From Betaproteobacteria bacterium (GTDB lineage Bacteria; Pseudomonadota; Gammaproteobacteria; Burkholderiales; SG8-39), in the NCBI GenBank assembly GCA_016177575.1, contig JACOVA010000030.1, positions 6,054-70,053 of the forward strand: 64,000 nt of DNA, read 5' to 3'. A model generated the notes under the pieces. That model was not told the origin of the DNA, did no database searches, and saw only the letters and a program-made list of their open reading frames with translations. The stretch's first letter is position 1; the number at the start of each line of letters is the position of its first letter. The position numbers were made by a program, and so were the translations under genes. Shown here piece by piece: positions 19,726-54,972 of the stretch.

Positions 19726-19735
19726 CGCCCCGACG

Positions 19736-29542: not shown

Positions 29543-30540
29543 AGCGGCCCGTCCTTGATCTCTCTGCTGCGCCGGATTTGATCCGCTATCGTCTGGAGGT
29601 TCGCGTCGAGCTCGCGGAAGCGCTGAGCGATGACATGCAGGATGACGCCCATCACGATGCTGATGAAACCCGCCAGGACCGTGCCGACGGCGAGGATCGC
29701 CGAGGGAATCCTGAGTATGAGCCCGGTGCGGAAGAAATCGGCGATCACGATTCCGCCAGGGATCAGCCCCAGCCCGATCAGGACGAGGCCGATGCCGCCG
29801 AAGAACGCAAGCGGCTTGTAGTCCCGGAACAGCGCGAACATGCTCTTGAGGATCGTGAAGCCGTCGCGGATGATCCGGATCTTCGATGAGCTGCCCGCCC
29901 TGCGGTTTCGCAGGTCGACGGGAATTTCCGTGACACGGAATCGTCGCGTGAGCGCACGGATCGTCATTTCGGCCTCGGTTTCGAAGCCGCCGCCGAACAG
30001 CGGAGTGCCGAGGACGAATCTCCGGCTGAACGCGCGGTAGCCCGACAGCAGGTCGCTGATTCGGATCCCGAACATGCTGCGCAGGAAGAAAAGGTACATG
30101 CGATTCCCGAGCCGGTTGAGCGCGCGGAACTCGCTCTTCGAGGCCTCCTGCAGACGCGAGCCGATCACCATGTCGGCTTCACCGGCGCGGATCGGCGCGA
30201 TCAGCCGATGAACCGCTTCCGCCGGATACGTGTCGTCGCCATCGACCATCACGTAGACGTCGGAATCGACCTGCCGGAACATCGCCTGAACGACATTTCC
30301 CTTGCCCAGTCTCGGCTCCTGGATCACGGTCGCACCGGCCTCGCGCGCAACGGCGGCGGTCTCGTCCGCCGAGTTGTTGTCGAACACGTAAATGCGCGCA
30401 GCAGGCAGCTCCAGCCGGAACGCCTCGATGACGCGTTTGATCGTGGACGCTTCGTTGTGGCACGGAACGAGAACTGCGACTCGCACCTCGGCAGGCCGAT
30501 CGCCTGCCGGCTCCAGAGATCTCGAAGCGGACGTGATCAT
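29536..30540 (-). CDS. GT2 polyprenyl-phosphate glycosyltransferase-type enzyme (ArnC/GtrB/Dpm1-like architecture)
   Basis: I chose the start at ATG 30540 (MITSAS). VLVPCHNEASTIKRVIE, VFDNNSADET, DGDDTYP, and two C-terminal TM helices (PLAFFGGIGLVLIGLGLI, SAILAVGTVLAGFISIVMGVIL). Confidence 0.8.
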   Translation of the reverse strand: MITSASRSLEPAGDRPAEVRVAVLVPCHNEASTIKRVIEAFRLELPAARIYVFDNNSADETAAVAREAGATVIQEPRLGKGNVVQAMFRQVDSDVYVMVDGDDTYPAEAVHRLIAPIRAGEADMVIGSRLQEASKSEFRALNRLGNRMYLFFLRSMFGIRISDLLSGYRAFSRRFVLGTPLFGGGFETEAEMTIRALTRRFRVTEIPVDLRNRRAGSSSKIRIIRDGFTILKSMFALFRDYKPLAFFGGIGLVLIGLGLIPGGIVIADFFRTGLILRIPSAILAVGTVLAGFISIVMGVILHVIAQRFRELDANLQTIADQIRRSREIKDGPLC

Positions 30541-30592: not shown

Positions 30593-32182
30593 CTAGCGGC
30601 TCTCCTCGAGGTAGTCGTCATCGATGTTGACGGCCCAGATCGCCGACTTGTCCGGGCTGCGCGCGAGGATCGCCTCGACCGCCTTCTTCGCGGATAGCAT
30701 CGAGTGGTCCTGGTTGTTGTAGCGGTGCATGCCGTTGCGGCCGACCAGGTACAGGTTGGCGTGGCCGTCCAGCCAGGCGCGCAGCTCGTCGAAGCGCGCA
30801 TAGCTGCCGAAATAGGCCGGGTAGGCTTTCGGCATGCGGATCACCACGCTATCGAGGCGCTCGGCGGGGTCGGCCAGCTTCAGCTGCTGCATCTCGCGCA
30901 TCGCGAGCTCCTTCATCTCGGCGTCCGGCGTATTCCACAGCGCGTCGCCTTCGCTGCAGAAATACTCCAGGCCGATCCAGATCGTGTCCGGATCGCGCAC
31001 CAGGTAGGGGCTCCAGTTGTTGAAGATCTGCAGCCGCCCGACCTTGACGCCGGGCTCCTGGACGTAGATCCAGTTGTCGGGCACCAGGTTGAGCGGCCCG
31101 CGCGCCGAGGGGTTGCGCATCAGGCGCCGGTAAAGCAGCCCGACGATGACGAAGTCCCGGTATTGCAGGCCGGCGGCGATCTCGCGCACCGGCTGCGGCG
31201 CCGGCGGCTCCATGCCGAGCACCAGGTCGCGCACCGGCATCGAGGAGATGAAGAAATCCGCCTCGTAACGCCGATCCACGCCGTCGCGTTCCGAGGCGTG
31301 GACCGCGGCGACGCGACCCGCGCCCCAGTCGATGCGCTTGACCCGCGATTCATTGATCAGGCGCACTCCCATCTCGCCGAGCCGCCCCGCGGTCACCTCC
31401 CACATCTGCCCGGGCCCGAGCTTGGGGTAGAGAAAGCGCTCGATGAGCGAGGTCTGCGCCGCGCCGCCGAGCCCGCTGCCACGGCGGAACGGCTTGCGCA
31501 GAGCATGCAGCAGCGCCTTGCCGATCGACAGGCTCTTGACGCGCTGCGCGCCCCATTCGGCGCTGATGCGGTCGCACGACGTGCCCCAGACCTTCTCGGT
31601 GTATTCCTTGAAGAACCGCAGATACAGGCGCCGGCCGAAGCGGTTGATGAAGAAATCCTCGAGGCTGCGCTCCGGCCGGCGCGGAAAGAGCTTGGACCAT
31701 GCGTAGCTCGCGCCGAACGCCACGCAGCGCGCCAGGCCCAGCTTGAGCGCGGTCTCGAAATTGGCCTTCAAGGGGTAGTCGAAGAACTTGCCGTCGAAAT
31801 AGATACGCGACAGGCGGTTGCGCACCAGCATGACGTCGCGCTCGGACTCGCTCGCAGTCGCGCCCTGGTACAGCTCGCGCCACTTGCCCTGATAGTCGAT
31901 GCGCAGCGCGCCCTCGCCCGCGTCCCGCGCCCGCGGGGCGGCGAGCGGCAGCATGCGCAGCCACCAGTCCATCACCCAGTCCGACTTGGAGAAGAAGCGG
32001 TGGCCGCCGATGTCGATGCGGTTGCCGTTGAACTCGACCGATTGCGCGAGCCCGCCGACGCTGCGCGTCGCCTCGAGCACGACGATGTCCTTCACGCCGG
32101 CCTGCGCAAGCTCGTACGCCGCGGTCAGCCCGGCCGGACCGGCGCCGACGATGATCACCCGCGCGCGCACGATTTCGCTCAT
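30593..32182 (-). CDS. FAD/NAD(P)-dependent oxidoreductase (amine-oxidase/UDP-galactopyranose-mutase-like superfamily)
   Basis: N-terminal dinucleotide fold [21 protein letters not shown]...[11 protein letters not shown] and GGHRFFSK. It lies in an operon with GtrA and GT2. Confidence 0.8.
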
Positions 32183-32571
32183 TTCGAATAGCGCGTGAAA
32201 AGAAGCAGCTTGCGCAGCGCGTAGTTGAAGCAGAAGACGACGCCGGCGGAAGCGACTTTGGCCATCTCGTAGGAAAGCGACAGGAGCTCCACGCCGACGT
32301 ATAGCACGAGCTGGTTGAGCGCCAGCCCCGCGAGCCCGATGAGGGTAAACACGCCGAACTCGAGGCGCGCGTCGGCGAGCCGCCGCTGGCTGAAGACCCA
32401 GCCGATCGACAGCGCGTAGATGGTCGCGAGGCCGAGCGCGAATCCGATCGGCGCCGCCGCCAGGTAGTACACGCCGCCGAGCCGGATCAGCCCCACGTAG
32501 ACGCCGAAATCCACGCCGAGCGCGATCGCGGATGCGACGAAATAGCGCGCTCCCTCGCGTGCCAGGCTCAT
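32179..32571 (-). CDS. GtrA-family small membrane protein
   Basis: 130 aa from ATG 32571, four hydrophobic helices, and [16 protein letters not shown]...[10 protein letters not shown] typical of GtrA. It overlaps both neighbours by 4 nt. Confidence 0.85.
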
Positions 32572-34145
32572 TGTTCCGCTTTCAGCAGGAGCGAGGTGGC
32601 GGCGCTGCCGGGCGTCGCGCGCGCATGCACGGTGGCTCCCCGATTCGCCAGCGCACGCGCCCCCGCCTGCCACGCCGCATCGCTGAGCGTGTCCCGCGGG
32701 TGGTACCTGCTCAGGAAGACGTAGTCGGCGCCCGATTCGCGCACCGCGCGCCGATACGCCTCGGGCGCAAGCCCGGAGGCGGGCGCGGCGACTCCGCGCC
32801 GGTCTGCAAGCAGCGCAACATAGGAGGGGGCGACCCACATGACGCGGTCCGCGGGCCGGGTGAGCGCGCGGATCGCCTCCATGTCCGCAAACAGATCGAG
32901 CTGCACCTGGGCGCGCGCGCGCGCCGCGACGAGGTCGGGCGTGCGGTACCAGTCGGTAATCGCGGCGAACGGCGCCCCGGCGCGCGCGCGCTGCTGGATG
33001 AACGCGAGGGCAGGCAGCGTCAGGCTGAGCATCAGCAGCGTGAGCAGCGCATGGCCGAACCCGGGCGCGCGCCGCGCGGCCTGCAGTGCCCTGCCCGCCG
33101 CCAGGAAAGCGTACAGGATCAGCACCGGCACGATCGGGAACAGGAAGCGCCCCATCTGGTCGTAAAACGGCCAGGCGAGGAACATCGCCAGGTAGGCGGC
33201 GGCGATCCAGGCATCGGCCTTCCCCGCACGCAGCCGCAGCGCCATGCCCGCTAGCGCAAGGCAGCCGACCACTCCCGCCAGTACAGCGCGCACCGGTCGC
33301 CCTTCGACCCAGAAGATCAGCAGCGAGCCAACCCAGCCCTCGGTCACCGCGTTCATCTGCCTGAGCAGGCTCGCGCCGAGGGCCGTCAGCGGAGCCTCGC
33401 TACCCAGAAGGGCGCGCGCATGCTCGGCCACGATGCGCGCATAGCTGTCGGCGCTCTCGGCAGGTCGCAGCAGCACCCAGGCGGCATAAGCGCCCGCGGC
33501 GGCGAGCGCGGGAATTAGCGCCTGCGCGCGCGCCGCCGCGGATTGCGCGCGCTGCATCGCCGCCCAGATCGCGTACACCGCGATCAGCGGCAGCGCAGCG
33601 GTTCGCGTCAGCGCCATGGCGCAGAGCAGAAGCGCGAGCATGAGCTGCCTGCGCCAGCCGGCCGCGCTCGAATCGAGAACGTGCAGCGTCGCCAGCAGCA
33701 GCGCGCAAAACAGCGGCTCGCTGAGAATTCCCTTGGCATTGATCCAGACCGTCGGCAGCAGGACGACCGACAGGGAGGCTGCAGCCGCCGCGCCCCGGCT
33801 TTCGAGCCAGCGGACTCCGAGCCCATAAACCAGGGGCACCGATGCGGCAAGGATCAGCGCGGTAAGCACATGCGCCCGCGCCAGGTCGTGCGCGGCGCCG
33901 GCCAGCGCGAGTATCAGCGGGAACAGGGGCGGATAGGACGTCTCGCGCGCGAACGCTGACGCAACCGCCGGCGACGCCGGCTGAAACGGCGAGAACACCT
34001 GTGCCATGACGAGGTAGCTCACGCTGTCGTCGGCAAAGGTGGCAAGCGTCGTCTGCCGCACGAACGTCGCGCAGGCCAGCGCGAATGCCAGGGTCAAGGC
34101 CCCGACCGCGATCCACGGCAGCGCCGGCTGCCCGCGCGAGGTCAC
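32568..34145 (-). CDS. Polytopic membrane protein, GT-C-like putative glycosyltransferase (ArnT/PMT-like architecture)
   Basis: 525 aa with about 11 hydrophobic segments followed by a soluble C-terminal domain. An acidic first-loop motif [14 protein letters not shown]. Family not confirmed. Confidence 0.55.
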
Positions 34146-34151: not shown

Positions 34152-37040
34152 TCAACCGCCATCGGGCGCGCTTTCGGCAACCGCTTCCGTGGCAACCTCG
34201 GTCAGCACCCCCGCCACGGTCCGCGCCATTCGTTCCCAGGTGAACAGCCGGGCGCGCTCGAGGCCCCTTGCCACCAGCCGGCTTCGCACCTCGGGGTTCT
34301 GGATTTCGTCCATTGCGCTCGCCAGGCCGATGTAGTCCATGGGCTTGACGTAGATTGCCGCATCCGCCGCGACCTCGGGGAGGGAAGCTCGCATGGTCGT
34401 GATGACCGGGCAGCCGCTCGCCATCGCTTCGGCGACGGGCATGCCGAAGCCTTCGTAGATCGAGGGGTAGGCGAGTGCGATCGCGCCGCAGTAGGCGAGC
34501 CTCAGCTCTTCGTCGTCCAGCCGCAGCATGTAGCGCTCGCCTTCCGCGCGCAGCGCCTGCAGCTCCGGCTCGAGGTCGCGCTCCCCGCCCACGCACACCA
34601 CGGCGAATTGATGCCGGTCGCGCAGGGCGGCGAAGGCGCGCAAGAAGGTTTCCGCGTTCTTGTAGGTCTTGCGCGAGCCGACGACGAGGAAATAGGGGCG
34701 CTTAATTCCGTGCCGGCGCTTGAAGCCCTCGATCTCGGTAGCAGCGGCGGGCCGGAACAGCGGGCTGACGCCGCAATGCGCAACCGTGACCCGGGCGGGA
34801 TCGAGCGCGGGATAGAAGCCGCACAGATCGCGCGCCGTGCTGGCCGAAATCGCGACAAAGCGGCTCGCGTGGCGGATGCAGGACTCCTTCTCGCGCCACA
34901 TCGGATCGTTGAAGTCCGACCCCGCGACTTCCGGAATCATGTCATAGGCCATCATCACGCTGGGTGTCTCAAGCGGGCTCGTGTAGTAGGTCGAGGCAAA
35001 GACCGCCGCACCCTCCTCATCGCAAATCCGCTGCAGCATCGCGCGGTCCTCGGCAAGCCGGTCGTAGCAGTGCCTAGGCACCACTCGCCGCTTGACGCCC
35101 GGGATCGGCGGCGCCGTCTGCTCCCGGTCCAGCAAGATTACGCGATCGGCGAAGCCGCTCGCCACCCAGTGCTGAAGCAGCGACTGCCAGACGCGCGAGA
35201 TGCCGGTGTTGAATTCCTGGAAGAAAACGCCGTCGACGATCACCCGCTGCGCCCGTGCGCCTGCGCTCGCCCTGCGCACCGGGCGCGGCGCTGCGGTGCG
35301 CGGTCCGGAGGCAGGCGGCTCGATCTGCATCGGCCGCGCCTGCTCCCCGGCACACCAGGCGCGCCACATGCGGCGATACGCGGTCTCCAAGCTGCGCGCG
35401 CAATGCTCCGCATCCATCAGCGCCGAGCGCTCGAGGCGCCCGCGCAACTCGCCGCGCAGCTTGAGAAGCCTCTCGCGATCGCTCGCCAGCGCGGCAGCGG
35501 TCTGCACATAGCGGACTTCGCTCTCGGCGACCAGCTCGCGCATGCCGACGGTTTCCAGAATGCCTGCCGCGTTCCGCGATGCGGATGTGGCTCCCCGCAG
35601 GGTCACGACCGGCACGCCCATCCACAGCGAATCGAGCGCAGCCGCGGCCCCGGAGCAAGGATGGGCGTCGAGGCTGATATCGATCCGCCCGTGCAGCGCG
35701 TGCCGCGCCGGCGCGGAAAGCTCTCCGAGCACTTCGATACAGCCCGCGTCCGTCCCCGCGGAGGCGAACTTCCCGGCAATGCGCGCGGCGAGCCGGTCGG
35801 CACCGCGTGCTGCGACGACGAGCTTCGATCCCGGCACGCTGCAGAGGACCCGGGCCCAGAGCGCAATGGCCTCCGGCGTCAGCGCCTGCAGCTCATGCAG
35901 CGCGCCGAACGTGATCGTCCGTTGCGCGACCGAGGGCGGCGACCCCACCTCAGGCGCTCCAAACTCCGGCCGGTAGCACAGCTGGCCGCCCGCCAGGCGG
36001 ACCAGGCGCTCGCTGTAAAAGCGCTCCATGCCCTCCGGGCAGGCGTGGATGTCGGTGATGCGGTAATCCATCGCATCGAGCCCGGTCGTGCACGGGTAGC
36101 CGAGCCAGCCAACCTGGATAGGCGCAGGCTTGGCCGCAAATGCCGGCATGCGCAGCCCGCCAGCGGCGTGGCCGGCGAGATCCACCAGAAGATCGATGCG
36201 GTCGGCACGAAGCCCTTCGCTGAACTGCGCGTTGCTCAAGCCCGTAGTCGCGCGCCAGGTGACGTCGCGCGCGCGCAGCCGCCAGCTCACCGGGTCTTCC
36301 GCCGCCGCGTCCGAGTAGCAGAAGATCTCGAACCCGGACCGGTCGTGCCATGCCAGCACGGGCTGCAGGCAGAAGCCGACCGAGGAGTCCCTGAAATCCG
36401 CGGCGACGTAGCCTATCCTGAGTCGGCGTTCGGGCTGCCGGTCATTCTCGTGTCCCTGAAAGCGCGGTCCCCCGGCATGGCGCAACGCCCACGCCTTGTG
36501 CTCCTCATGCAGGCTTTGCGGGGTCAGATCCGGTATTGAATTGAGCGCCTGGAGCATCTCGCTGTGCGCCCGGTGCATCGAGGGATCGAGCTGCAGCGCG
36601 GTTCGAAGGCTCTGCACGGCATCGCGCGGCGACCCCGTCTCGCGCAATGCAGAGCCGAGCGCGGCGTGCCAATCCGCCCGGCCCGGATCGAGTTTCAGCG
36701 CCGAGCGCAGGGGCTCCCCGGCGTCGGCCGGCTGCCCGCGCTCGAGCAGCAGCGCGCCGAGGTTGAACCAGGCCTGCGCCAGAGCGGGCTCGCACGCCAC
36801 TGCATCGCGGTAGCACCGCAGCGCCTCGTCGCCTCTGCCGGCATGCTGCAGGACGAGGCCGAGATTGACGCTTGCCTTCGCGTGCCGGGGATCGAGGGCG
36901 AGCACCTTGCGCCAGCAGGATTCCGATTGCTCCAGCAGCCCCGCGTCCAGGCGCGCAACGCCGAGCAGGTACCACAGTCCGGCGTCGTCCGGCCGCGCCG
37001 CCACGGCGCGCTCGGCGGCGTCCAGGTCGGCGGACGTCAT
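34152..37040 (-). CDS. Tripartite TPR / GT41 (OGT-like) / GT4 glycosyltransferase fusion, 962 aa
   Basis: The start at ATG 37040 overlaps the upstream stop (ATGA). It has N-terminal TPRs and a GT41-like core (RLRIGYVAADF..., PIQVGWLGYPCTTGLDAMDYRITD, DAHPCSGAAAALDSLWMGVPVVTL). A C-terminal GT4 domain follows (YPSIYEGFGMPVAEAMASGCPVI). Confidence 0.85.
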   Translation of the reverse strand: MTSADLDAAERAVAARPDDAGLWYLLGVARLDAGLLEQSESCWRKVLALDPRHAKASVNLGLVLQHAGRGDEALRCYRDAVACEPALAQAWFNLGALLLERGQPADAGEPLRSALKLDPGRADWHAALGSALRETGSPRDAVQSLRTALQLDPSMHRAHSEMLQALNSIPDLTPQSLHEEHKAWALRHAGGPRFQGHENDRQPERRLRIGYVAADFRDSSVGFCLQPVLAWHDRSGFEIFCYSDAAAEDPVSWRLRARDVTWRATTGLSNAQFSEGLRADRIDLLVDLAGHAAGGLRMPAFAAKPAPIQVGWLGYPCTTGLDAMDYRITDIHACPEGMERFYSERLVRLAGGQLCYRPEFGAPEVGSPPSVAQRTITFGALHELQALTPEAIALWARVLCSVPGSKLVVAARGADRLAARIAGKFASAGTDAGCIEVLGELSAPARHALHGRIDISLDAHPCSGAAAALDSLWMGVPVVTLRGATSASRNAAGILETVGMRELVAESEVRYVQTAAALASDRERLLKLRGELRGRLERSALMDAEHCARSLETAYRRMWRAWCAGEQARPMQIEPPASGPRTAAPRPVRRASAGARAQRVIVDGVFFQEFNTGISRVWQSLLQHWVASGFADRVILLDREQTAPPIPGVKRRVVPRHCYDRLAEDRAMLQRICDEEGAAVFASTYYTSPLETPSVMMAYDMIPEVAGSDFNDPMWREKESCIRHASRFVAISASTARDLCGFYPALDPARVTVAHCGVSPLFRPAAATEIEGFKRRHGIKRPYFLVVGSRKTYKNAETFLRAFAALRDRHQFAVVCVGGERDLEPELQALRAEGERYMLRLDDEELRLAYCGAIALAYPSIYEGFGMPVAEAMASGCPVITTMRASLPEVAADAAIYVKPMDYIGLASAMDEIQNPEVRSRLVARGLERARLFTWERMARTVAGVLTEVATEAVAESAPDGG

Positions 37041-40000
37041 GCGGGTGCGCGCAGCCGTTTTTCCCCCATCTCGCGGTACGCATCCTCCAGCGCGCGCGTG
37101 AAGCGCGCCGCATCCAGCAGCGGCGAGGCGCGCATGCGCTCGCGCATTCCGGCGCGCAGCGCCCGCCGCTCGTCGAGCTGCCCCGCCAGGCGTAGCACGA
37201 TCGCGGCGTACTGCTCGGGTGTCGTGGCGACAAGCTCGGCGAGGCCGATGCTGCTCAGGATACTTGCGCCGGTCCTGGATGCGCAGGTCCGTCCGGCAAG
37301 CGTAACCACGGGCACGCCCATCCAGAGCGCCTCGCACGTAGCGCTCATGCCGGCGTACGGGAAGACATCCAGCGCGATGTCGATCTCGCGGTATGCCGCC
37401 AGTCGTCCGGCCGGTGAGAAATCCGGGACGTGCAGATCGAAGCGCTGCTCGGCAATGCCGTGGGCGAGCAGTTGTGCGCCCATATCGCGCCGCGCGCTCG
37501 CCGCGCTCAGGCCGTAACTGCCCAGAACCAGCCGCGCCTGCGGCTGCGCGAGCAGGATCTGCGCCCAGAGCGCGATCATGTGCGGCGTCATCGCCGCCAG
37601 CTCGTTGAAGCTGCCGAACGTGACGTGGCCGCTGCGCGACTGCGGGACCTCGCCCGCCTCGAGGCAATCGGGCTCGGGCTGATAGCAGAGAAAGCTTGCC
37701 GGCAGGCGAAGCAGTTTCTCGGCATGAAAGCGCTCGCTCTCCCCGCGCGGGTCCGCAACCGGATCGGTCAACCGATAGTCGATGGCATCCAGCCCCGTCG
37801 TGTCCGGGTAGCCGAGCCAGGTCGCCTGGACCGGGGCCGGCCTGCGGGCAAAAAGCAGCAGCCTGCCCCCGGCGGCATGGCCGGCCAGGTCGACGAGGAT
37901 GTCGATTCCGTCTGCGCGCACCTGGTCGGCCGCCTGCTCGTTGGCAAAACGCGAGATGTCGCGCCAGTGCGCGCACATGCCCCGCAGCCGCCGCGTCACC
38001 TCGTCTTCCTGCCCTCCGGTCGCGTAGCAGAACACCTGGAAAGCGGCTCGATCATGCGCCGCCAGCACCGGCTCGATAAAGGCGGCCAGCGGCCGGCGCG
38101 CGAAGTCCGGCGAAACGTAGCCGATATTCAGCCGCCGGCCGGGGCCCGTGTCCCGCAGCCGATGCGCGGTCGCGCGCAGCAATCCGCGCGCGTGCCGGTC
38201 CCGCCAGGAAACGTGCCGGTCTAAAAGCAGCTGCGCATCTTCGCCCTCGCGGAAATGCAGCGCCAGCAGCGACCGGGATTCCACGTCGGCGAGTCCCGGG
38301 TCGAGCTCGAGTGCCTTCGCCCAGGCGGCGCGCGCCTCCTCCACCCGTCCCGCGACCAGCAGCGCGCCCCCCAGGTCCGCATGCGCGCGCTCATAACCGG
38401 GGGCGATCTCGATGGCGGCGCGGAAATCCGCGATCGCCTCATCCAGTTGCAGCTCGCGGTAACGCAGGCTGCCCAGGTTGCAGCGCCAGTCCGCATGCCG
38501 GGTTTCGATGGCAAGCGCCCGGCTGACGTAGTCGATCGCCTGCTTCGTGTCGCCGAGCTGGCCGTAGACGTTGCCGAGATTGTAGAGCGCCTGCGCCATG
38601 GCCGGGTCGCGGCCGATCGCGCCGCGATAGCAGTCCACCGCCGCGGCAAGATTCCCGGCCGCCTCGAGCGCACAGCCAAGGTTGTTATGGGTCTTCGCCT
38701 GCGAATCGTCGAGCTCGAGCGCGCGGCGAAACGATGCGATCGCGTCCTCCGTCCTGCCCACGGCCTGGAGCGCGCATCCCAGCATGTAGTGAAAGGCGGC
38801 GACCCGGGGGTCGGCGGCGATCGCCCTGTTGATCCAGTCGATCGCCGCGCCGGGCGCATCGCCGTCAAAAGCGAGATCCCACTGCAGCGTCAGCGCATCG
38901 GGATGAGCAGGCGTTCCCGCCAGGATCTTTTCGCAGCGCGCGCGCGCTTCCGCCAGCCGTCCCGCGGCGCGCAGCCGGCGCGCCTGGCCGATCAGCTCGT
39001 TGTCCGACTCCTCGCCCGTGGCGCCGGGAACCGCCTCCGACCGCTTGCGCGTTTCCCACAGCTCGAGGTAGCAGCGCTCGAGCACGCGCGCGAACCCCTG
39101 CTCGTCCAGGAGCGGCGAGCTCCGCATCCGCTCGCGCAGGCCGCGGCGCAATTCCGCCAGATGCTCGATGTTGCCAGCGAGGCGGACGCTGGTCGCGATA
39201 TAAGCGTCGACCTCGTGCGTCAGGTACTGCTCGAGCCCCATGGCGTGCAGCAGGCTGGCGCCCATTCGTGCCGCGTGGCGGTCTCCGGCGAGCGAGACCA
39301 CCGGCACGCCCATCCACAGCGCCTCGCAGGTCGTGGTGGCGCCGTTGTACGGAAAGCTGTCGAGCGCGATATCGACCGAGTTGTAGATCGCGAGATGGTC
39401 CTTCACTCCCGCTTCCCATCCGCGCAGCTCGACCCGGGCCGGATCGATTCCGGCGTGCCGGAATCTGCCGCGCACCGAATCGGCGACGCTCTCGACCGAC
39501 AGCGGCCGGCCCTTCAGGATGAGGCGCGACCCGGGCACCTGCGCCAGCGTGCGGGCCGCGGCGTCCAGGAACGGCGCGGACAGTTTCGCGAAGTTGTTGA
39601 AGCAGCCGAACGTCACCGTGCCCTTGCTCAGCGCCGGCAGGGACGCGACCGCCGGACTGTCCGGCTCGGGCCGGTAGCAGAAATAACTCCTCGGCAGGCG
39701 CACCAGCCGCTCCGCCGTGTAGCGGTCCGCCTCGCCCGGCGGATCGGCCCAGGCGTCGGTAATGCGGTAGTCGACCGCGCCCAGCCCGGTGGTGTTCGGG
39801 TAGCCGAGATAGGTCGCCTGCAGCGAGGCCGGCTTCATCGCCAGCACCGGCATGCTGTTGCCAGCCGTATGCCCGGCAAGATCCACCAGGATGTCGATGC
39901 GATCCGCCCTGATGCGCTCGGCCAGCTCGCGCTCCGAAAGATCGTCGGCGTCGACCCAGTGCTCGGCCAGGGCGCGCAGCCTCCCGGTGACCGCATCCCT

Positions 40001-40846
40001 GCGGGGATTGGTGTGGTAGCAGGTGACCTCGAATCGGCCACGGTCGTGCCGCGCCAGTATCGGCTCCATGAACCGCATCACGACGTGCTCGCGGAAATCC
40101 GGCGACAGGTAGCCGAGGCGAAGCCTGCGCGGCCACGCCGGATCCGGCGCCGGCGCTTCGTAGCGCCGCGCGAAGCGCGCCCCGAAGCGCTGGTGCTCCG
40201 CGAAAATCGCCGCGGCATCCTCGTTGCAGCTGTAGTTCAGCTCGAGCAGGAGGTTGCTGTGGGTCGGCGCGTGGTCGGGCACCAATGCCAGGGCGCGCCG
40301 GTAGGTGGCGATGGCCTCGTCGGTCCTGCCGAATTCGCGATAGATGCCGGCGAGGTTGAAATGGACTTCCGGCACGTTCGGCAGAAGCGCCTGCAGCCGC
40401 TCCAGCTCGGGGAGCGCCTCCGGCCTGCGATTGAGCTCGATCAACGCTACCGCGTAGTTGTTGCGCAGCCTCGTGCAATCGGGTTGCAGGCCGAGGCAGA
40501 CACGATAGACCTCGATGGCTTCTTCAAAGCGGCGCGCATCGAGGAGCGCGGCGCCGAGCTCGAGCTGGTACAACGCCTCTCCGGGTCGCAGATCCACCGC
40601 CTGCTGAAAAAGCGCGATCGCCTCCTGCTGCCTGCGGTCGCGCACCGCCATGCGGCCGAGGAAATAGAGCGCGTCGGTGTGCGCCGGATCGCTCTCGAGC
40701 ACGCGGCGGTACAGGCGATCGGCGCCCGCGGGATCTCCCCTGCACTCGCATTCATAACCCGCGCGCAGCCACTCTTCCGGTCCTTCGGGCCCGGCAGCGC
40801 GCGCAGGCGACGGCTCGGCGCGAAGCACCCGCTTCAACCAGTTCAT
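37037..40846 (-). CDS. Tandem (TPR-GT41)x2 protein, 1269 aa
   Basis: Two colinear copies of a TPR array plus GT41-like core. Module 1 has LGYLSPDFREH..., LQATYLGYPNTTGLGAVDYRITD and FPYNGATTTCEALWMGVPVVSL. Module 2 has IGYVSPDFARR..., VQATWLGYPDTTGLDAIDYRLTD and FPYAGMSATCEALWMGVPVVTL. Confidence 0.85.
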   Translation of the reverse strand: MNWLKRVLRAEPSPARAAGPEGPEEWLRAGYECECRGDPAGADRLYRRVLESDPAHTDALYFLGRMAVRDRRQQEAIALFQQAVDLRPGEALYQLELGAALLDARRFEEAIEVYRVCLGLQPDCTRLRNNYAVALIELNRRPEALPELERLQALLPNVPEVHFNLAGIYREFGRTDEAIATYRRALALVPDHAPTHSNLLLELNYSCNEDAAAIFAEHQRFGARFARRYEAPAPDPAWPRRLRLGYLSPDFREHVVMRFMEPILARHDRGRFEVTCYHTNPRRDAVTGRLRALAEHWVDADDLSERELAERIRADRIDILVDLAGHTAGNSMPVLAMKPASLQATYLGYPNTTGLGAVDYRITDAWADPPGEADRYTAERLVRLPRSYFCYRPEPDSPAVASLPALSKGTVTFGCFNNFAKLSAPFLDAAARTLAQVPGSRLILKGRPLSVESVADSVRGRFRHAGIDPARVELRGWEAGVKDHLAIYNSVDIALDSFPYNGATTTCEALWMGVPVVSLAGDRHAARMGASLLHAMGLEQYLTHEVDAYIATSVRLAGNIEHLAELRRGLRERMRSSPLLDEQGFARVLERCYLELWETRKRSEAVPGATGEESDNELIGQARRLRAAGRLAEARARCEKILAGTPAHPDALTLQWDLAFDGDAPGAAIDWINRAIAADPRVAAFHYMLGCALQAVGRTEDAIASFRRALELDDSQAKTHNNLGCALEAAGNLAAAVDCYRGAIGRDPAMAQALYNLGNVYGQLGDTKQAIDYVSRALAIETRHADWRCNLGSLRYRELQLDEAIADFRAAIEIAPGYERAHADLGGALLVAGRVEEARAAWAKALELDPGLADVESRSLLALHFREGEDAQLLLDRHVSWRDRHARGLLRATAHRLRDTGPGRRLNIGYVSPDFARRPLAAFIEPVLAAHDRAAFQVFCYATGGQEDEVTRRLRGMCAHWRDISRFANEQAADQVRADGIDILVDLAGHAAGGRLLLFARRPAPVQATWLGYPDTTGLDAIDYRLTDPVADPRGESERFHAEKLLRLPASFLCYQPEPDCLEAGEVPQSRSGHVTFGSFNELAAMTPHMIALWAQILLAQPQARLVLGSYGLSAASARRDMGAQLLAHGIAEQRFDLHVPDFSPAGRLAAYREIDIALDVFPYAGMSATCEALWMGVPVVTLAGRTCASRTGASILSSIGLAELVATTPEQYAAIVLRLAGQLDERRALRAGMRERMRASPLLDAARFTRALEDAYREMGEKRLRAPA

Positions 40847-40903
40847 TGCATCGCCCCGACGGCTGGTAACATTGAAATCGAGGACGTCAACCAGAGGTCA
40901 GAC

Positions 40904-41197
40904 ATGTCCAAAGGGCCAGGCTCCCGCGACGTGGCGGATTTTGCCACCGAACTGGTGCTGGAGTTTTCCAAGCGCTGCCCGCCCGAGCTCGCCGAGCGCT
41001 CGACGATGGCCGTCGCGCGCGCGATTGACGAAATCTGCAACCGCGCGGCGGCGCTTCAGCGCGAGCAGCACCTCGGCATCTACGGCAGGGCGAAGTTCGG
41101 CACCGAGTTCAAGCTCCGGCTCAAGGACGCCGGATACGTGCCGGAGTTCGTGGACGAGCTTACCACCAAGCTGCTGATCAGCATGTCGGGAAAATAG
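40904..41197 (+). CDS. Hypothetical 97-aa protein
   Basis: This is the only plausible part of the long antisense ORF 38255..41197. ATG at 40904 with AGAGG 8 nt upstream. Native codon bias, non-low-complexity sequence, and 18 nt upstream of the FkbM gene. No motif recognised. Confidence 0.45.
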   Translation: MSKGPGSRDVADFATELVLEFSKRCPPELAERSTMAVARAIDEICNRAAALQREQHLGIYGRAKFGTEFKLRLKDAGYVPEFVDELTTKLLISMSGK

Positions 41198-41215
41198 CCG
41201 TCCCAGCAGTCCTGA

Positions 41216-42097
41216 ATGAATTCCGACAAGCTCCACCGCGTCGGGCCGTTCGAGCTGATCCTGCCGCCCGATCACATGCTCGACCGGTATCAGAAGCAAT
41301 ATCACCTCTACGACTGGGTCCTCGGCGAGCTCGCCGTCCTGCTGCTGGCAAAATATCCGGACGCGGCGGCGATCGATATCGGCGCCAACGTCGGCGACAC
41401 GGCTGCGGTACTCTGCCGCAAGCAGGAAATCCCGGTGCTGTGCGTCGAGGGCCATCCGCATTTTGTCGCCTACCTGCGCCGCAATCTGGCGCGCCTTCCC
41501 GCCTGCATCGAATTCGCCGAATGCCTGGTGGGCGCTCGCTCCGGCTCGATATCGGCGGCGAGCTTCATCGCCGACCACGGCACCGCCGCTATCGACAGCG
41601 CCGCCGGCGGGCGCGAAAACGATCGGCGCATTCCGGTGCGCCCTCTTGCCGATATCCTTCGCGAGCACCCTCGCTTCCAGCGCTCGCGGCTGCTGAAGAC
41701 CGATACCGACGGCTCCGATTTCGAGATCCTGGGATCGTCGCTCGACGCGTTGCGCGATACCCACCCGGTGCTTTTCTTCGAGTACGACCCGACCCTGCGC
41801 CCGGACGGTGCGAAAGCCGCAGCCGACACGATCTCCGGGCTAGTGCAGGCGGGCTACGGGCGCTTCCTGCTGCATGACAACTACGGCCACTTTGCCGGCA
41901 GCATCGACGCGGACTGCAGGGAGAAATTCCTCTCCCTCGATCGCTACCTGTTCTCGAACCTCTATTTCGGCAGGCGCATCTACTACTACGATGTCTGCGC
42001 GTTCTGCCCGGCCGACTTCGACCTGTGCGGCGAGCTGGAGACCACGCACCGTCTTCTGATCGAGGCGGCGTTGCGCGAGGACGGCAGAGTTTTCTAA
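41216..42097 (+). CDS. FkbM-family methyltransferase
   Basis: AIDIGANVGDTAAV and LLKTDTDGSDFEIL motifs typical of the FkbM family. Confidence 0.85.
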   Translation: MNSDKLHRVGPFELILPPDHMLDRYQKQYHLYDWVLGELAVLLLAKYPDAAAIDIGANVGDTAAVLCRKQEIPVLCVEGHPHFVAYLRRNLARLPACIEFAECLVGARSGSISAASFIADHGTAAIDSAAGGRENDRRIPVRPLADILREHPRFQRSRLLKTDTDGSDFEILGSSLDALRDTHPVLFFEYDPTLRPDGAKAAADTISGLVQAGYGRFLLHDNYGHFAGSIDADCREKFLSLDRYLFSNLYFGRRIYYYDVCAFCPADFDLCGELETTHRLLIEAALREDGRVF

Positions 42098-42103
42098 CCG
42101 CGC

Positions 42104-50618: not shown

Positions 50619-52994
50619 TCACTTGATGCAGACCGAGCGCACTTCCTTGATGTTGGTGACGCCCGAGAGGCACTTCTCCATGCCGTCCTGCTTCAGGGTG
50701 CGCATACCCTCCTCCAGCGCCACCGCGAGCATCTCGGCCACGCGCGCCTTCTCGGCGATCAGCTTCTTGAGCGGGTCGGTGGCGATCAGCAGCTCGTGCA
50801 GGCCGCAGCGGCCCTTCATGCCGCTGCCGCCGCATTTGTCGCAGCCGACGGGCTTGTAGAACGTCAGCTGGCCCTTTTCGTTGCCGTAGGTCTTCACCCA
50901 GTCGCGATAGACGTTTTCCATCGCCGACTTGGGGTCTTTCTTGAAGGTCGAGGTGTTCTGCAGTTCGTCGCAGTACTCCTGCAGGAACGCTTTGATTTCC
51001 GCCCCTTCCGGGTTGTACGCCTGCTTGCAGCTGCACATGCGCCGCGCCAGGCGCTGCGCCAGGATGCCGAGCAGCGCGTCGGAGAAGTTGAACGGGTCCA
51101 TGCCCATGTCGAGCAGGCGGATGATCGACTCCGGCGCCGAGTTGGTGTGCAGCGTCGCGAACACCAGGTGGCCGGTGAGCGAGGCTTCGATGCCGGTGCC
51201 GGTGGTCTCCTTGTCGCGCATCTCGCCGACCATGATGATGTCCGGGTCGGCGCGCAGGAAAGCCTTCATCACCGCCGCGAAATCCAGGCCCGCCTTCTTG
51301 TTCACCTGCACCTGGCGCAGGCCCTTCTGCGTGATTTCGACCGGGTCTTCCGCGGTCCAGATCTTGGTGTCGGGCGTGTTCAGGTACTTGAGCACGGAGT
51401 GCAGTGTCGTCGTCTTGCCCGAGCCGGTCGGGCCGCAGACGAAGAACAGGCCGTAGGGCTTGCCGACCGCTTTCTGCAGCTCGTCGAGGTTGTGGGCCGT
51501 AAACCCCATCTTCTCGAGCGGGATCGGCTCGCCCGCGGCGAGGATCCGCATCACCACGTCTTCCACCCCGCCGGCGGTAGGGATGGTGGCGACCCGCAGC
51601 TCGATGTCCAGGGGCCCGAATTTCTTGAATTTGATCTTGCCGTCCTGGGGCTTTCTCTTCTCCGAGATATCCAGGTCGCACATGATCTTGAGGCGGGCGG
51701 CGAGCGCGTTGCGGTAGCTCGCCGGCACCTCGATGTAGGGCTGCAGGTTGCCGTCGCGCCGGAAGCGGATCTCGGTCTTGGCCTTGCCGGGATAGGGCTC
51801 GATGTGGATATCCGACACGCCCTGGTTGTAGGCGTCGATGATGATCTTGTTGACCAGCTTCACCAGCTCGTTGTCCGCGGCCGCCGAGACGTCGTCGGCC
51901 ACCGAGCCTTCCATCGCCTCGCCGCCGCCCTCCTCGTCGCCGAGGGTCGCCAGCATGTCGCCGATGTCGCCGCTATCGACCGCCTCCTGGCCGTAGAACT
52001 GGTTGACCGTTTCCTTGAACTCCTTCTGCGTCGTCACCTTGTACAGCAGGCGGGACTTGGGGAACACGTTCGATGCAATGCGCGAGCTGCGGATGCGCTC
52101 CGGGTCGAGGCACAGGACCGAGAGCCCTTCCTTCGCCTCGTCGATCGGCAACCAGTGGTTTCCCTCCACGTACTCGCGCTTGAGGTTCTTCAGCAGATCC
52201 ATCGGCTTGACGCGATCGGCCTTGAACGGCTCGTAGGGCACGCCGAAGAATTTCGACAGCGCCGCGCCGATGGCGGGAATCTTGACCTGGAACTCGTCGG
52301 TGAGCACCGCCTCGATATCGATCGCCTTCTTGCGCGCCTGGCGCGAGGCGAGCTCGAACTCGCCCGCCGACAGCACCGCGTCGGAAATCAGGTAGTCGTA
52401 TTTCGTCTTGACGAGCTGCGGCTTCTGCCGCTGCTTGAATGCGATCGCCAGGGTCTGCGCGAGCTCGTTGACGCCCTCCTCGGTGAGCGGGCCGAAAGGC
52501 GAGCCGGCCTTGTTGTTGATGATCTGGATCACGCCGATCAGCTCGGCGCCCCCCTGCTCGACGATCGGCGCGACCAGCTGCTGCTTGGTGCGGTAGCCGG
52601 TGCGCTTGTCGACCTCCTGCAGGAAGCGCAGGTTCGGATTGATCGCCTTCAGCTCGGCCTCGTCGTAGACGTCCTTGATGTTGGTCAGCTTGCGCGACAT
52701 CGCGACGTAGCCCGCGATCGAATGCTCCGCGATCGGCAGCTTGAGGTCCTTGAAGGAGTTGAGGCCGGTCTTGACCTTGGAGACGATCGACTGCTTGTCC
52801 TCGCCGACCGAATAGATCGTCAGCCGATCGGCGTTGAACAGCTGGCAGATGTCCGAGCTCACCTCCAGCATGATCTCGTCGATGTTGCTGGTGGCGTGGA
52901 TCTTGTTCGTCACCAGCTGCAGCTGCTTCTGGAACGCGAGCCGGATATTGACGTCCGTCTGCGTCGCTGCTGGATGGCTGAGTACCGCGCTCAT
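50619..52994 (-). CDS. GAF-fused GspE/PilB-family secretion ATPase (791 aa)
   Basis: N-terminal GAF (LTIYSVGEDKQSIVSK...GVIQIINNK). A T2SS-E N-domain-like segment. Walker A CGPTGSGKTTTL, Walker B IMVGEMRD, His box GHLVFATLHTN, and a Cys4 cluster CSCK...CDKCGGSG. Confidence 0.9.
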   Translation of the reverse strand: MSAVLSHPAATQTDVNIRLAFQKQLQLVTNKIHATSNIDEIMLEVSSDICQLFNADRLTIYSVGEDKQSIVSKVKTGLNSFKDLKLPIAEHSIAGYVAMSRKLTNIKDVYDEAELKAINPNLRFLQEVDKRTGYRTKQQLVAPIVEQGGAELIGVIQIINNKAGSPFGPLTEEGVNELAQTLAIAFKQRQKPQLVKTKYDYLISDAVLSAGEFELASRQARKKAIDIEAVLTDEFQVKIPAIGAALSKFFGVPYEPFKADRVKPMDLLKNLKREYVEGNHWLPIDEAKEGLSVLCLDPERIRSSRIASNVFPKSRLLYKVTTQKEFKETVNQFYGQEAVDSGDIGDMLATLGDEEGGGEAMEGSVADDVSAAADNELVKLVNKIIIDAYNQGVSDIHIEPYPGKAKTEIRFRRDGNLQPYIEVPASYRNALAARLKIMCDLDISEKRKPQDGKIKFKKFGPLDIELRVATIPTAGGVEDVVMRILAAGEPIPLEKMGFTAHNLDELQKAVGKPYGLFFVCGPTGSGKTTTLHSVLKYLNTPDTKIWTAEDPVEITQKGLRQVQVNKKAGLDFAAVMKAFLRADPDIIMVGEMRDKETTGTGIEASLTGHLVFATLHTNSAPESIIRLLDMGMDPFNFSDALLGILAQRLARRMCSCKQAYNPEGAEIKAFLQEYCDELQNTSTFKKDPKSAMENVYRDWVKTYGNEKGQLTFYKPVGCDKCGGSGMKGRCGLHELLIATDPLKKLIAEKARVAEMLAVALEEGMRTLKQDGMEKCLSGVTNIKEVRSVCIK

Positions 52995-53044
52995 CGGATC
53001 CCCCCGTGCATTGCGTAGCCTATCTTAGCGCCTGATCGAAAACC

Positions 53045-53073
53045 ATTCTACACCCACCCTCATGATTTTTAAC
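53045..53073 (-). promoter_or_regulatory. Putative sigma-70 promoter for the ATPase gene (weak call)
   Basis: The minus strand has GTTAAA, a 17-nt spacer, then TAGAAT, about 45 nt upstream of ATG 52994. It lies in the only sizeable (113 nt), AT-richer gap of the operon. Confidence 0.25.
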
Positions 53074-53107
53074 CTTCTTTTCTGGAATTACGTCACTGAA
53101 AGAGCCA

Positions 53108-54193: not shown

Positions 54194-54196
54194 GGC

Positions 54197-54964
54197 TCAG
54201 AACTCGAACGTCTGCCCGTTCTGCAGCATGCGCGGCCGGCGGCTGGCCGAGCATTCCTCGACCTCCTGCATCGTCAGCTCGATCTCCCCGGGCTTGAGGT
54301 GCGTGATCCAGATCTCGGGATCGCGCTCGAGCTTGGCCAGCTCGTCGGCGAGCATCGAGGGGCACAGGTGCTTGGACACTTCCGCCAGCTGGCGCTCCTT
54401 GTTCGAGAAAGCGGTCTCGATGATCAGCACGCGCAGGTTCTCGATCTGATTCACGATGTGCCACAGCTCGTCGTTCGGCCCGGTGTCGCCGGAAAAGACC
54501 AGGCTGCCCGTGCCGCTGCGAAGGTGGTAGCCGACCGCAGGCACGGTATGGATCGCCGGCAGCGGCGTGAAATCGCGCCCGCCCAGCGTCACCGTCCTGC
54601 CGAGCTCGATTTCCTGGTAACGCAGGAACGGCGCCTCCGCGCTCGGGATCTCGGTGAAGTCCGGCCAGATCGCCCAGTTGAACAGATGGTTCTTCAGGAT
54701 CTCGATGGTCGCGCCGGTCGCGTGGACGGTGATCGGCCGGGCGCGCATGCCGCCGACCGTGTCGACGAGAAACGGGATCGAGGTGACATGGTCGAGATGC
54801 GAGTGCGTGACGAAGATATGGTCGATCTGGGTCAGCTCGGCGAGCGACAGGTCGCCGACCCCCGAACCGGCATCGATCAGCACGTCGCTGTCGACGAGAA
54901 AGGAGGTGGTGCGCAGATGGCGCCCGCCGATACCCCCGGAGCAGCCCAGGACGCGCAGGCGCAT
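54197..54964 (-). CDS. Class II 3',5'-cyclic-nucleotide phosphodiesterase (MBL fold)
   Basis: Start at ATG 54964 (MRLRVLGCSGG). Metal motif FVTHSHLDHV. Size is ~255 aa. Confidence 0.8.
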   Translation of the reverse strand: MRLRVLGCSGGIGGRHLRTTSFLVDSDVLIDAGSGVGDLSLAELTQIDHIFVTHSHLDHVTSIPFLVDTVGGMRARPITVHATGATIEILKNHLFNWAIWPDFTEIPSAEAPFLRYQEIELGRTVTLGGRDFTPLPAIHTVPAVGYHLRSGTGSLVFSGDTGPNDELWHIVNQIENLRVLIIETAFSNKERQLAEVSKHLCPSMLADELAKLERDPEIWITHLKPGEIELTMQEVEECSASRRPRMLQNGQTFEF

Positions 54965-54972
54965 CGCCGGGC

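Follow-up and report, generated by a model that had tools for sequence, protein, structure and literature searches.

Positions 34152–48917 of a 64,000-nt window (the whole stretch of DNA analysed here, from contig JACOVA010000030.1, part of an uncultured betaproteobacterial metagenome-assembled genome, MAG, of soil or groundwater origin) hold an island in which glycosyltransferases (GTs) fused to tetratricopeptide repeats (TPRs) surround pilA, a type IV pilin gene. In our best reading, the island is the variable heart of a surface-glycosylation supercluster of ~15.9–48.9 kb, found in a clade of uncultured Burkholderiales-type Betaproteobacteria. The core of the island is invariant: a sigma-54-transcribed type IVa pilin gene, a gene for a small protein of ~97 amino acids (aa), and a double TPR-GT41 gene with an intact SPINDLY-type module 1. 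Around this core, an OGT-type TPR-GT41, GT9-fold TPR enzymes with the architecture of FlmG, GT4 enzymes and an FkbM methyltransferase are lineage-specific. We tentatively interpret the whole, with slightly more doubt than belief, as a pilin-directed multi-enzyme O-glycosylation system with the SPINDLY-type TPR-GT41 at its core and the small protein as a possible adaptor.

Domains were assigned by Pfam and NCBIfam profile scans of the open reading frames (ORFs) of the window, and folds by AlphaFold2 (AF2) models compared with the PDB using Foldseek. Exact matches of the window proteins in NCBI are MBI1942451–61, and the G+C content of the window is 65–71%. The island and the two genes upstream of it comprise the following features:

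34152–37040, minus strand: ORF1, TPRs, a GT41 module in degenerate form and a GT4 domain that appears intact, 962 aa (Pfam)
37037–40846, minus strand: ORF2, double TPR-GT41, 1269 aa (Pfam, 3.5e-102)
40904–41197, plus strand: soluble protein of 97 aa, divergent from ORF2 (no Pfam match)
41216–42097, plus strand: FkbM-family methyltransferase (Pfam Methyltransf_21, 5.5e-10; TIGR01444, 3.7e-17)
42113–42144, minus strand: intrinsic terminator 3' of pilA (12-bp stem with eight GC pairs, then a T-run)
42171–42602, minus strand: pilA, type IVa major-pilin-like, 143 aa (Pfam Pilin, 1.5e-19; N_methyl, 2.7e-10)
42676–42691, minus strand: sigma-54-type -24/-12 promoter of pilA, TGGCCTGAGGCTTGCA (TGG-N9-TGC element)
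42853–44292, minus strand: ORF6, TPRs and a GT9-fold domain, 479 aa, TTG start (Pfam, AF2, Foldseek)
44330–45946, plus strand: ORF7, TPRs and a GT9-fold domain, paralogue of ORF6, 538 aa (Pfam matches for the TPRs, none for the C-terminal domain)
45943–47016, minus strand: GT4 glycosyltransferase, 357 aa (Pfam Glyco_trans_1_4, 1.6e-14)
47019–48917, minus strand: ORF9, TPRs and an OGT(SEC)-type GT41, 5' end uncertain (Pfam GT41, 3.5e-95)
48914–50599, minus strand: GAF-HD-GYP protein, directly upstream of ORF9 (Pfam HD_5, GAF)
50619–52994, minus strand: GAF-MshEN-PilB/GspE-like ATPase (Pfam T2SSE, 4.8e-112; MshEN; GAF)

The association of the pilin gene with the TPR-GTs is conserved far beyond this contig. 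A metagenome scan with a profile of the small ORF retrieved 66 loci. A pilin gene stands on one side of the small ORF in 39 of the 43 loci in which at least 700 nt are available there; 28 of these 39 pilin genes are convergent with the small ORF and lie 39–137 nt from it, and in three of the four exceptions a GT9-fold gene is inserted before the contig ends. On the other side, 33 of 35 loci carry a TPR-GT41 gene. In the window, ORF2 is 1.3 kb from pilA; in most loci the small ORF alone separates the TPR-GT41 gene from the pilin gene. Neighbourhoods anchored on homologues of ORF6 (L001–L009, 54–82% identity) all place one or more pilin genes among TPR-GT9-fold genes, TPR-GT41 genes and the small ORF, with gene gain, loss and inversion around this pilin core; L009 carries two pilin genes on the other strand. 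Since the arrangement recurs in dozens of independent metagenome contigs, it is not due to chance. The trio of pilin, TPR-GT9-fold and small ORF is found again in L161, a locus from a distant lineage (61% GC) whose small ORF is only 34% identical; this locus also carries PP2C, FHA, GT4 and dTDP-sugar genes, and a GGCAC-N5-TTGC element upstream of the pilin gene. The L161 pilin (4880–5350) is normal in its N-terminal half but Arg-rich nonsense in the C-terminal one, probably through an assembly frameshift.

The pilA gene and its product have the features of a typical type IVa major pilin: a class III signal (KG|FTLIE, with G-1, F+1 and E+5), the Pilin domain, a C-terminal pair of cysteines and a sigma-54 promoter. 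The gene has its own strong ribosome-binding site (AAGGAG) as well as its own terminator. Of 52 distinct pilin upstream regions, 44 have a TGG-N9-TGC element 68–95 nt before the ATG, where shuffled sequences give 3.2 (maximum 9); over the whole window the sigma-54 pattern is not enriched (12 matches, 25.5 expected). Serine and threonine make up 16–25% of the pilins across loci and 30% of the globular part of the window pilin. We weighed and dismissed N-glycosylation by an NGT-like enzyme, because the pilins lack conserved NxS/T sequons and the NGT profile NF049992 gives scores far under its cut-off (72.8, 35.5 and 21.9 bits, cut-off 1000). HMW1C matches are in the range 1e-6 to 5e-8 and, unlike in HMW1C/NGT enzymes, the N-termini encoded in the island are TPRs and not AAD; the island enzymes thus do not belong to this group.

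The three GT41 proteins of the island score well above the 25-bit cut-off of PF13844 (ORF1, 169.7; ORF2, 342.8; ORF9, 319.7 bits) and are thus members of this family. We checked the residues corresponding to K842 (in FNQLYK), H498, H901 and H920-T921-T922 (HTT) of human OGT. ORF9, the C-terminal half of which matches human OGT (1e-85), XcOGT (3e-78) and SPINDLY (2e-50) and is therefore of the OGT type, keeps the full catalytic signature: FNQAYK (Q839/K842), NAHTT (H920–T922) and the His residues. Module 1 of ORF2 is of the SPINDLY type (SPY 4e-91, against 5e-44 for human OGT) and keeps FNNFAK, NGATTT and the His residues, all invariant across six orthologous loci; it is the best-conserved part of the protein, and module 2 is variable. 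Module 2 of ORF2 (FNELAA, AGMSAT, His replaced by Arg) and the GT41 module of ORF1 (LHELQA, SGAAAA, His replaced by Ser) are degenerate: the equivalents of K842, H498, H901 and HTT are gone from both, and on these replacements both are probably inactive. The OGT catalytic residues are consequently kept in just two of the four GT41 modules. The decay of ORF2 module 2 is lineage-specific, as this module is intact in L001 and L007. In ORF1, the GT41 match (1e-49) is followed by a C-terminal GT4 domain (Glycos_transf_1, 2e-20), and its counterpart in L001 and L005 is a GT4-only or TPR-GT4 protein.

By sequence, the intact modules are assigned to both protein-directed branches of GT41, OGT and SPINDLY. 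The acceptor class of the family is protein Ser/Thr, selected by the N-terminal TPR superhelix. To our knowledge, every characterised GT41 (OGT, SPY, HMW1C) acts directly on protein; we know of none that uses a lipid-linked acceptor and of no member that builds polysaccharide. Pfam places the TPR arrays at the N-termini of the GT41 ORFs here too, and a Ser/Thr protein acceptor is predicted. No transmembrane-like or signal-like segments were predicted in any TPR-GT, the GT4, FkbM or the 97-aa protein, and all the TPR-GTs are thus predicted to be soluble. The 5' end of ORF9 is unusual in that no ATG, GTG or TTG start exists upstream of GTG 48818, though the sequence there codes for a perfect canonical TPR. 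CTG 48917 and the stop codon (TGA) of the HD-GYP gene overlap (cCTGA), a junction also present in L003 (5430–5450), which suggests a non-canonical start codon or termination–reinitiation coupling. NCBI holds the exact product of the GT4 gene next to ORF9 (45943–47016) as a GT4 protein; its orthologues are 66–86% identical.

ORF6 and ORF7 are related to GT9 in the models, at the fold level only. ORF6 reaches 17.9 bits with PF01075, below the 22-bit cut-off, and ORF7 has no match, so that GT9 membership is not supported at the sequence level; against PDB sequences, the full-length proteins give TPR matches only, and the C-terminal domain (~300 aa) alone gives none. The AF2 model of this domain (predicted local distance difference test, pLDDT, 91.5) has the GT9 structure 3tov, WaaC and WaaF as its best Foldseek matches in the PDB (E 7e-9 to 5e-7, TM-score 0.52–0.61), and TibC ranks below WaaC and WaaF (E 7e-5, TM-score 0.45–0.5). 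It shows the marks of GT9 at this level: a GT-B fold whose N-lobe carries a GD motif and whose C-lobe carries a nucleotide-binding motif. The GFGD and DTATAHLAGALG motifs are nearly invariant, and the C-terminal domains of ORF6 and ORF7 are 42% identical. The two genes are divergent with only 37 nt between their start codons (44292–44330), so that either the promoters lie within adjacent coding sequences or the starts are misannotated; orthologues of ORF6, which starts with TTG, are up to 20–45 aa longer at the N-terminus.

The TPR-GT9-fold family is very large (>7900 homologues in many phyla). We surveyed 80 distant loci and found Pfam-confirmed flagellin genes near five, a prepilin-type gene within 10 kb of one, and neither in the other 74. 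We consequently rejected a general assignment of TPR-GT9-fold enzymes to pilins. The five flagellin-linked relatives (L023, L038, L048, L077 and L079, the last with two flagellin genes; 39–47% identity, within 10 kb) are in keeping with a flagellin-glycosylating function, like that of FlmG, in part of the family.

The five TPR ORFs are all real, with Pfam scores far over the cut-offs, and the arrangement proposed in the initial annotation, namely five ORFs with N-terminal TPRs and C-terminal GT-B domains around a type IV pilin gene, is confirmed at the positions given above by Pfam and by AF2 fold. Its count of four GT41 and two GT9-like modules holds for the GT41 family assignments, with the corrections that only two of the four are catalytically intact, that ORF1 has an additional GT4 domain and that GT9 applies by fold only. 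The pilin is not strictly an ‘orphan’, as was proposed, because a conserved PilB-like ATPase gene lies 8 kb from pilA.

The 97-aa protein belongs to no Pfam or NCBIfam family. It has 71 close homologues, and 419 remote representative clusters of ~100-aa proteins at E ≤ 1e-3. In the remote loci L160, L161 and L162 its relatives adjoin TPR-GT genes. As the pairing persists without a pilin gene in L160 and L162, the general module seems to be ‘small protein + TPR-GT’, with the pilin as a constant companion in the present clade and in L161. Beside the small-ORF/TPR-GT41 pair of L162, a locus unrelated to the window, stand a cNMP-binding kinase, a rhodanese and an M48 peptidase gene with TPRs (6922–8358) similar to the BepA-like M48 peptidase with a TPR domain encoded at 8347–9849 (minus strand) of the window; this may be a coincidence. 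FkbM is likewise a recurrent gene of the island; some loci encode it as a longer Methyltransf_21 protein of 462–495 aa, and in the L161 TPR-GT9-fold protein the C-terminal portion appears FkbM-like by eye.

Immediately 3' of ORF2 and ORF1, on the same strand and with tiny gaps, follows a membrane arm that the initial annotation missed, along with the conserved Wzm/Wzt exporter further out, because its reading stopped at 34152. It comprises a GT-C protein, a GtrA protein, a flavin adenine dinucleotide (FAD)-dependent oxidoreductase and two GT2 enzymes. Together with the transporter genes further out, the features on this side are:

15925–16791, plus strand: Wzm-type ABC-2 permease (Pfam ABC2_membrane)
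16802–18031, plus strand: Wzt-type ATP-binding cassette (ABC) ATPase with a Wzt_C glycan-cap-binding domain (Pfam ABC_tran and Wzt_C; refined start)
26806–28503, plus strand: second polytopic membrane protein, putative GT-C-like transferase (weak NCBIfam match)
28493–29542, minus strand: GT2 glycosyltransferase (Pfam Glycos_transf_2, 4.7e-24)
29536–30540, minus strand: GT2 polyprenyl-phosphate-sugar synthase-like protein of the GtrB/AglJ/ArnC type with two C-terminal transmembrane segments (NCBIfam)
30593–32182, minus strand: FAD-dependent amine-oxidase-fold oxidoreductase (Pfam Amino_oxidase/NAD_binding_8; NCBIfam NF005546, 705 bits)
32179–32571, minus strand: GtrA-family small membrane protein (PF04138 GtrA_DPMS_TM matches of orthologues; three transmembrane-like segments)
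32568–34145, minus strand: island-specific GT-C-fold glycosyltransferase, 525 aa (AF2/Foldseek; nine transmembrane-like segments)

The GT-C protein has 353 homologues, some of which match PMT (PF02366) or PMT_2, and all of those checked are island-associated. An FADDSVSY motif is invariant in its first loop. As a profile search against PDB sequences found nothing, we used a fold search: the AF2 model (pLDDT 84) matches STT3, AglB, PglB, DPY19, ArnT and PMT, and its C-terminal ~100 aa are modelled as an alpha/beta domain and not as TPRs. The GT2 protein at 29536–30540 matches AglJ (2.7e-69), dolichyl-phosphate-hexose transferase (1.5e-28), PpgS and ArnC in NCBIfam, and its orthologues match GT2_TM_C. 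The second polytopic protein has no Pfam match, resembles the LA_3751/LA_3752 putative glycosyltransferase of NCBIfam (2.5e-10) and has at least six transmembrane-like segments; L090 and L092 have genes of 549–568 aa without a Pfam match in the equivalent place, a likeness of size and position.

Loci anchored on the GT-C gene (L090–L092, 62–66% identity) share one gene order: pilin gene(s), small ORF, TPR-GT41 gene(s), FkbM, GT-C, GtrA and FAD oxidase; the oxidase stands after GtrA in L001 as well as in L090, L091 and L092. In L090 and L092 there follow GT2, the unassigned protein of ~550 aa and further GTs before Wzm/Wzt closes the block, and in L091 Wzm/Wzt stands directly after the oxidase. 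Genes matching ABC2_membrane and ABC_tran occur in all three loci, and Wzt_C was detected in L091. The conservation of this block order up to Wzm/Wzt makes ~15.9–48.9 kb a single conserved supercluster, and Wzm together with a Wzt carrying Wzt_C, conserved with the island, is the hallmark of ABC-transporter-dependent glycan export. No initiating phosphoglycosyltransferase was found among the window ORFs scanned, and no window ORF scanned matches Wzy_C, including at E ≤ 1 for unassigned ORFs. A route of the PglL/PilO/TfpO type, with an O-oligosaccharyltransferase, was rejected because there is no Wzy_C protein among these ORFs.

The genes of the supercluster and of its flank differ widely in how far they have diverged. 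Median identity to the window is 94% for the ATPase and 89% for HD-GYP, 72% for the FAD oxidase, 65% for GT41 module 1, 63% for GT-C, 60% (range 44–91%) for the pilin and 54% for the GT9-fold domain. The island is thus hypervariable and its flanking genes are conserved, a pattern known from surface-antigen loci, and this hypervariability next to an ATPase conserved at 94% suggests phage- or predator-driven diversification of the pilus surface.

The closest known parallel is found in cyanobacteria, a precedent overlooked when the island was proposed to be an undescribed system. In Synechococcus elongatus, the TPR-GT41 gene ogt (Synpcc7942_0051) adjoins pilA with one hypothetical gene in between; PilA glycosylation and normal piliation depend on the catalytic Lys of Ogt, an enzyme without a secretion signal; such adjacency occurs in 77 of 201 cyanobacterial genomes; and Nostoc OgtA as well as Synechocystis kpsM, a component of an ABC-2 exporter, also affect PilA, the latter its glycosylation (PMC9306852). 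The island resembles the Ogt/OgtA–PilA pairs in placing a soluble TPR-GT41 with a conserved catalytic Lys beside a major pilin gene, and it shares with them, including Nostoc punctiforme OgtA, the topology puzzle of an enzyme without a secretion signal. However, where cyanobacteria have a single Ogt, the island has up to eight GT-B modules (SPINDLY-type and OGT-type GT41, GT9-fold and GT4). It also adds FkbM, the GT-C/GtrA/GT2 triad and Wzm/Wzt, and belongs to Betaproteobacteria, where it is known from genes alone. It is thus a richer proteobacterial variant of the cyanobacterial Ogt–PilA theme and not a categorically new system. Our literature search found no paper linking pilins with GT41 or SPINDLY-type enzymes outside cyanobacteria; the cyanobacterial case, the sole known tie of a soluble OGT-like enzyme to a pilin, rests on genetics.

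FlmG of Caulobacter crescentus (596 aa), a soluble cytoplasmic enzyme, binds flagellin through TPRs at residues 1–313, and its GT-B domain selects the donor and glycosylates flagellin (PMC7591256). ORF6 and ORF7 share this architecture (N-terminal TPRs, a C-terminal GT-B domain of ~300 aa, soluble, without transmembrane segments), a likeness of architecture. The filament gene of the island, however, codes for a type IV pilin, exported by the Sec/prepilin pathway and not by the flagellar type III secretion system, and the window ORFs scanned include neither a nonulosonic-acid pathway nor a flagellin gene.

The membrane arm recalls TfpW, a pilin glycosyltransferase of the GT-C class with a GtrA-like partner protein (bioRxiv 2020.04.19.049825). 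TfpW, the arabinosyltransferase of Pseudomonas aeruginosa group IV pilins, is dedicated to pilin, has an Asp-Asp motif in its first periplasmic loop and uses a polyprenyl-phosphate sugar donor. The island matches it in fold and partners, with a GT-C protein bearing an invariant Asp-Asp motif, GtrA and a GT2 like polyprenyl-phosphate-sugar synthases. Unlike TfpW, however, the island GT-C is encoded ~8 kb from pilA, behind ORF2 and ORF1, and has no periplasmic TPRs, which sets it apart from a pilin-adjacent TfpW; the island also lacks DprE1/DprE2/UbiA-type D-Araf genes and has many soluble TPR-GTs in addition. S-layer glycan clusters combine a structural gene with wzm/wzt, methyltransferase-GTs, an AsnB homologue and a TPR protein (PMC2943079). 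The island has in common with the slg clusters of Geobacillus and Paenibacillus and with ABC-dependent O-antigen loci Wzm, a Wzt with Wzt_C, methyltransferases, an AsnB-like gene and GtrA/GT2/GT-C. It differs from them in having GT41, and its window has neither a Wzy_C-type O-oligosaccharyltransferase nor an initiating phosphoglycosyltransferase.

Soluble enzymes can modify exported proteins: HMW1C/NGT (GT41-fold) and the BAHT enzymes TibC and Aah (GT9-fold) glycosylate surface proteins while these are still in the cytoplasm, ahead of their export by Sec, which makes cytoplasmic modification of an exported protein feasible. The island enzymes appear not to be BAHT, given the weaker fold match of TibC and the absence of an autotransporter among the window ORFs scanned; the same ORFs include no two-partner-secretion substrate. 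The topology problem raised in the initial annotation, a cytoplasmic GT acting on an exported pilin domain, is weakened by another feature too, as GT-C/GtrA/GT2 and Wzm/Wzt offer a periplasmic route. Its proposal of protein-directed glycosylation with pilin as a possible target is strengthened by the protein-directed GT41 branches, the predicted solubility of the enzymes and the pilin in 39 of 43 loci and in L161; the periplasmic arm and the two decayed modules weaken it, and gene association makes the pilin a putative substrate. Mining neighbourhoods for recurring partners, as that annotation advised, recovers the pilin around orthologues of the island but at only one of the 80 distant TPR-GT9-fold loci.

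We propose the following working model, whose substrate, compartments and order of steps we infer from the gene content. The substrate would be the pilin. The TPR arrays would bind pilin or prepilin on the cytoplasmic side, perhaps aided by the small protein as an adaptor, and a GT41 module would start the glycan by attaching a sugar to Ser/Thr. Extension, methylation and diversification could then fall to the remaining GT-B modules and FkbM, and the GT-C/GtrA/GT2 triad may add a sugar from a polyprenyl-phosphate donor in the periplasm, with either the pilin or the Wzm/Wzt-exported glycan as acceptor. Characterised proteobacterial pilin glycosylation is periplasmic (PglL/TfpO, TfpW). A bolder version of the model, doubtful but worth stating, is that Proteobacteria have a third, cytoplasmic route, in which TPR-GT41s, FlmG-like enzymes and a ~97-aa adaptor build a methylated O-glycan on the prepilin. 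This would take place before or during membrane insertion and would be distinct from both the en bloc transfer of PglL/TfpO and the reaction of TfpW. If so, the small protein + TPR-GT pair would be a general, hitherto unrecognised module of bacterial protein glycosylation.

Several observations weigh against a pilin-directed system. Many of the syntenic loci come from close relatives (ATPase 85–95% identical), so that the synteny partly reflects shared ancestry and is weaker than the raw counts suggest. L160 and L162 pair the small protein with TPR-GT9-fold or TPR-GT41 genes with no pilin nearby, prepilin-type genes are nearly absent within 10 kb of distant TPR-GT9-fold genes (1/80), and some islands (L126, L128, L148, L154) have no GT9-fold genes. 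The pilins have no conserved sequon, and their Ser/Thr content is just moderately high. The globular domain of the pilin is periplasmic and the TPR-GTs are cytoplasmic; GT-C/GtrA/GT2 with Wzm/Wzt could glycosylate the pilin without any contact with the TPR-GTs, or could serve a lipopolysaccharide (LPS) O-antigen. Finally, all the organisms concerned are uncultured and known as MAGs, from sequence alone.

The membrane arm is at the centre of a lipid-linked route, which we regard as rather improbable. Here the soluble GTs, the TPR-GTs among them, would build a methyl-capped glycan on undecaprenyl (pyro)phosphate at the membrane's inner face, Wzm/Wzt would export it, and the GT-C would move this glycan or single sugars to the periplasmic pilin by the logic of S-layer systems and TfpW, the TPRs serving to assemble the enzyme complex and not to capture the substrate. 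Wzm, Wzt (with Wzt_C in the window and in L091) and several methyltransferases are indeed conserved neighbours, GtrA and the AglJ/ArnC-like GT2 adjoin the GT-C, and the GT-C itself combines fold matches of the oligosaccharyltransferase kind, an invariant loop-1 Asp-Asp pair and 353 homologues found with the island where checked. TfpW with its GtrA-like partner, the S-layer clusters and the effect of Synechocystis kpsM on PilA glycosylation provide precedents. However, the invariable neighbour of the pilin is the TPR-GT41 and not the GT-C, which is not beside pilA and, unlike TfpW, has no TPRs in its periplasmic domain; the window contains neither an initiating phosphoglycosyltransferase nor a Wzy_C enzyme, and characterised GT41s act on proteins, none on lipid-linked acceptors. 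Also quite unlikely in our opinion is the possibility that the region is an ordinary polysaccharide locus for an ABC-dependent LPS O-antigen or exopolysaccharide with Gtr-type side-branching in the periplasm, the pilin being a bystander in a hypervariable region; GT41 has no known polysaccharide-building member. Wzm/Wzt with GT2, GT4, WbsX, methyltransferases and GtrA/GT2/GT-C is the classical architecture of such loci, TPR-GTs are very common without pilin or flagellin (74/80 GT9-fold loci; L160 and L162), and the synteny comes largely from related organisms. Yet the pilin stays between the small ORF, the TPR-GT41 and other GTs in spite of gain, loss and inversion, the partnership is seen again in the distant L161, and cyanobacteria provide an independent GT41–pilin adjacency with genetic proof.

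We also considered a regulatory glycosylation of cytoplasmic proteins (the ATPase, HD-GYP, FHA/PP2C/cyclase proteins or the 97-aa protein) that would tune pilus assembly. The genes for the ATPase, HD-GYP, ORF9 and GT4 are tightly packed in this order on one strand, with an overlap of 4 nt between HD-GYP and ORF9 that is kept in L003; signalling genes accompany the island, PP2C and FHA flank the L161 pilin, and small protein + TPR-GT pairs occur without pilin. But ORF9-type genes are missing from many islands and the pilin-adjacent ORF2 type is constant, L007 has pilin and TPR-GTs without an ATPase on the upstream flank used elsewhere (its other side runs off the contig), the GT4s, FkbM, GT-C and exporter point to a complex glycan of the surface and not to a switch-like monosaccharide, and hypervariability is typical of exposed structures. 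Altogether this makes a regulatory role very unlikely. The pilin-directed system remains the reading that we tentatively favour.

The island would then represent a GT41–pilin partnership arising in a phylum unrelated to cyanobacteria and in a richer form; pseudo-GT41 modules, a small partner protein and a linked GT-C and exporter set it apart from the known case. As a defined gene set, it could resolve by what path TPR-GTs of the cytoplasm gain access to an exported filament subunit, and could give a function to very large bacterial TPR-GT families that are now without one, such as the >7900 GT9-fold homologues.

A signalling block travels with the island (48914–58928, minus strand) and contains PP2C, FHA, CHASE2 adenylate/guanylate cyclase, cNMP-binding + rhodanese, ATPase and GAF-HD-GYP genes; the pilin of the distant L161 is flanked by PP2C and FHA genes as well. 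The NCBIfam PilB score of the ATPase is 475 bits, below the 675-bit cut-off. The block may constitute a cyclic-nucleotide-controlled pilus ATPase.

At the other end of the supercluster, 15925–28503 has the appearance of an ABC-transporter-type glycan cluster, which also codes for three S-adenosylmethionine-dependent methyltransferases, an AsnB-like amidotransferase and a WbsX-family GT; the profile scans gave no family match for the ORFs at 18921–20003, 22275–23201 and 22784–23992. A megablast of the island against plasmids returned only short TPR matches. Positions 1–15915 hold unrelated housekeeping and transport genes, including an M17 aminopeptidase, ValRS, a two-domain PPK2, ChrB, an efflux pair of the HlyD/MacB type and GH43.

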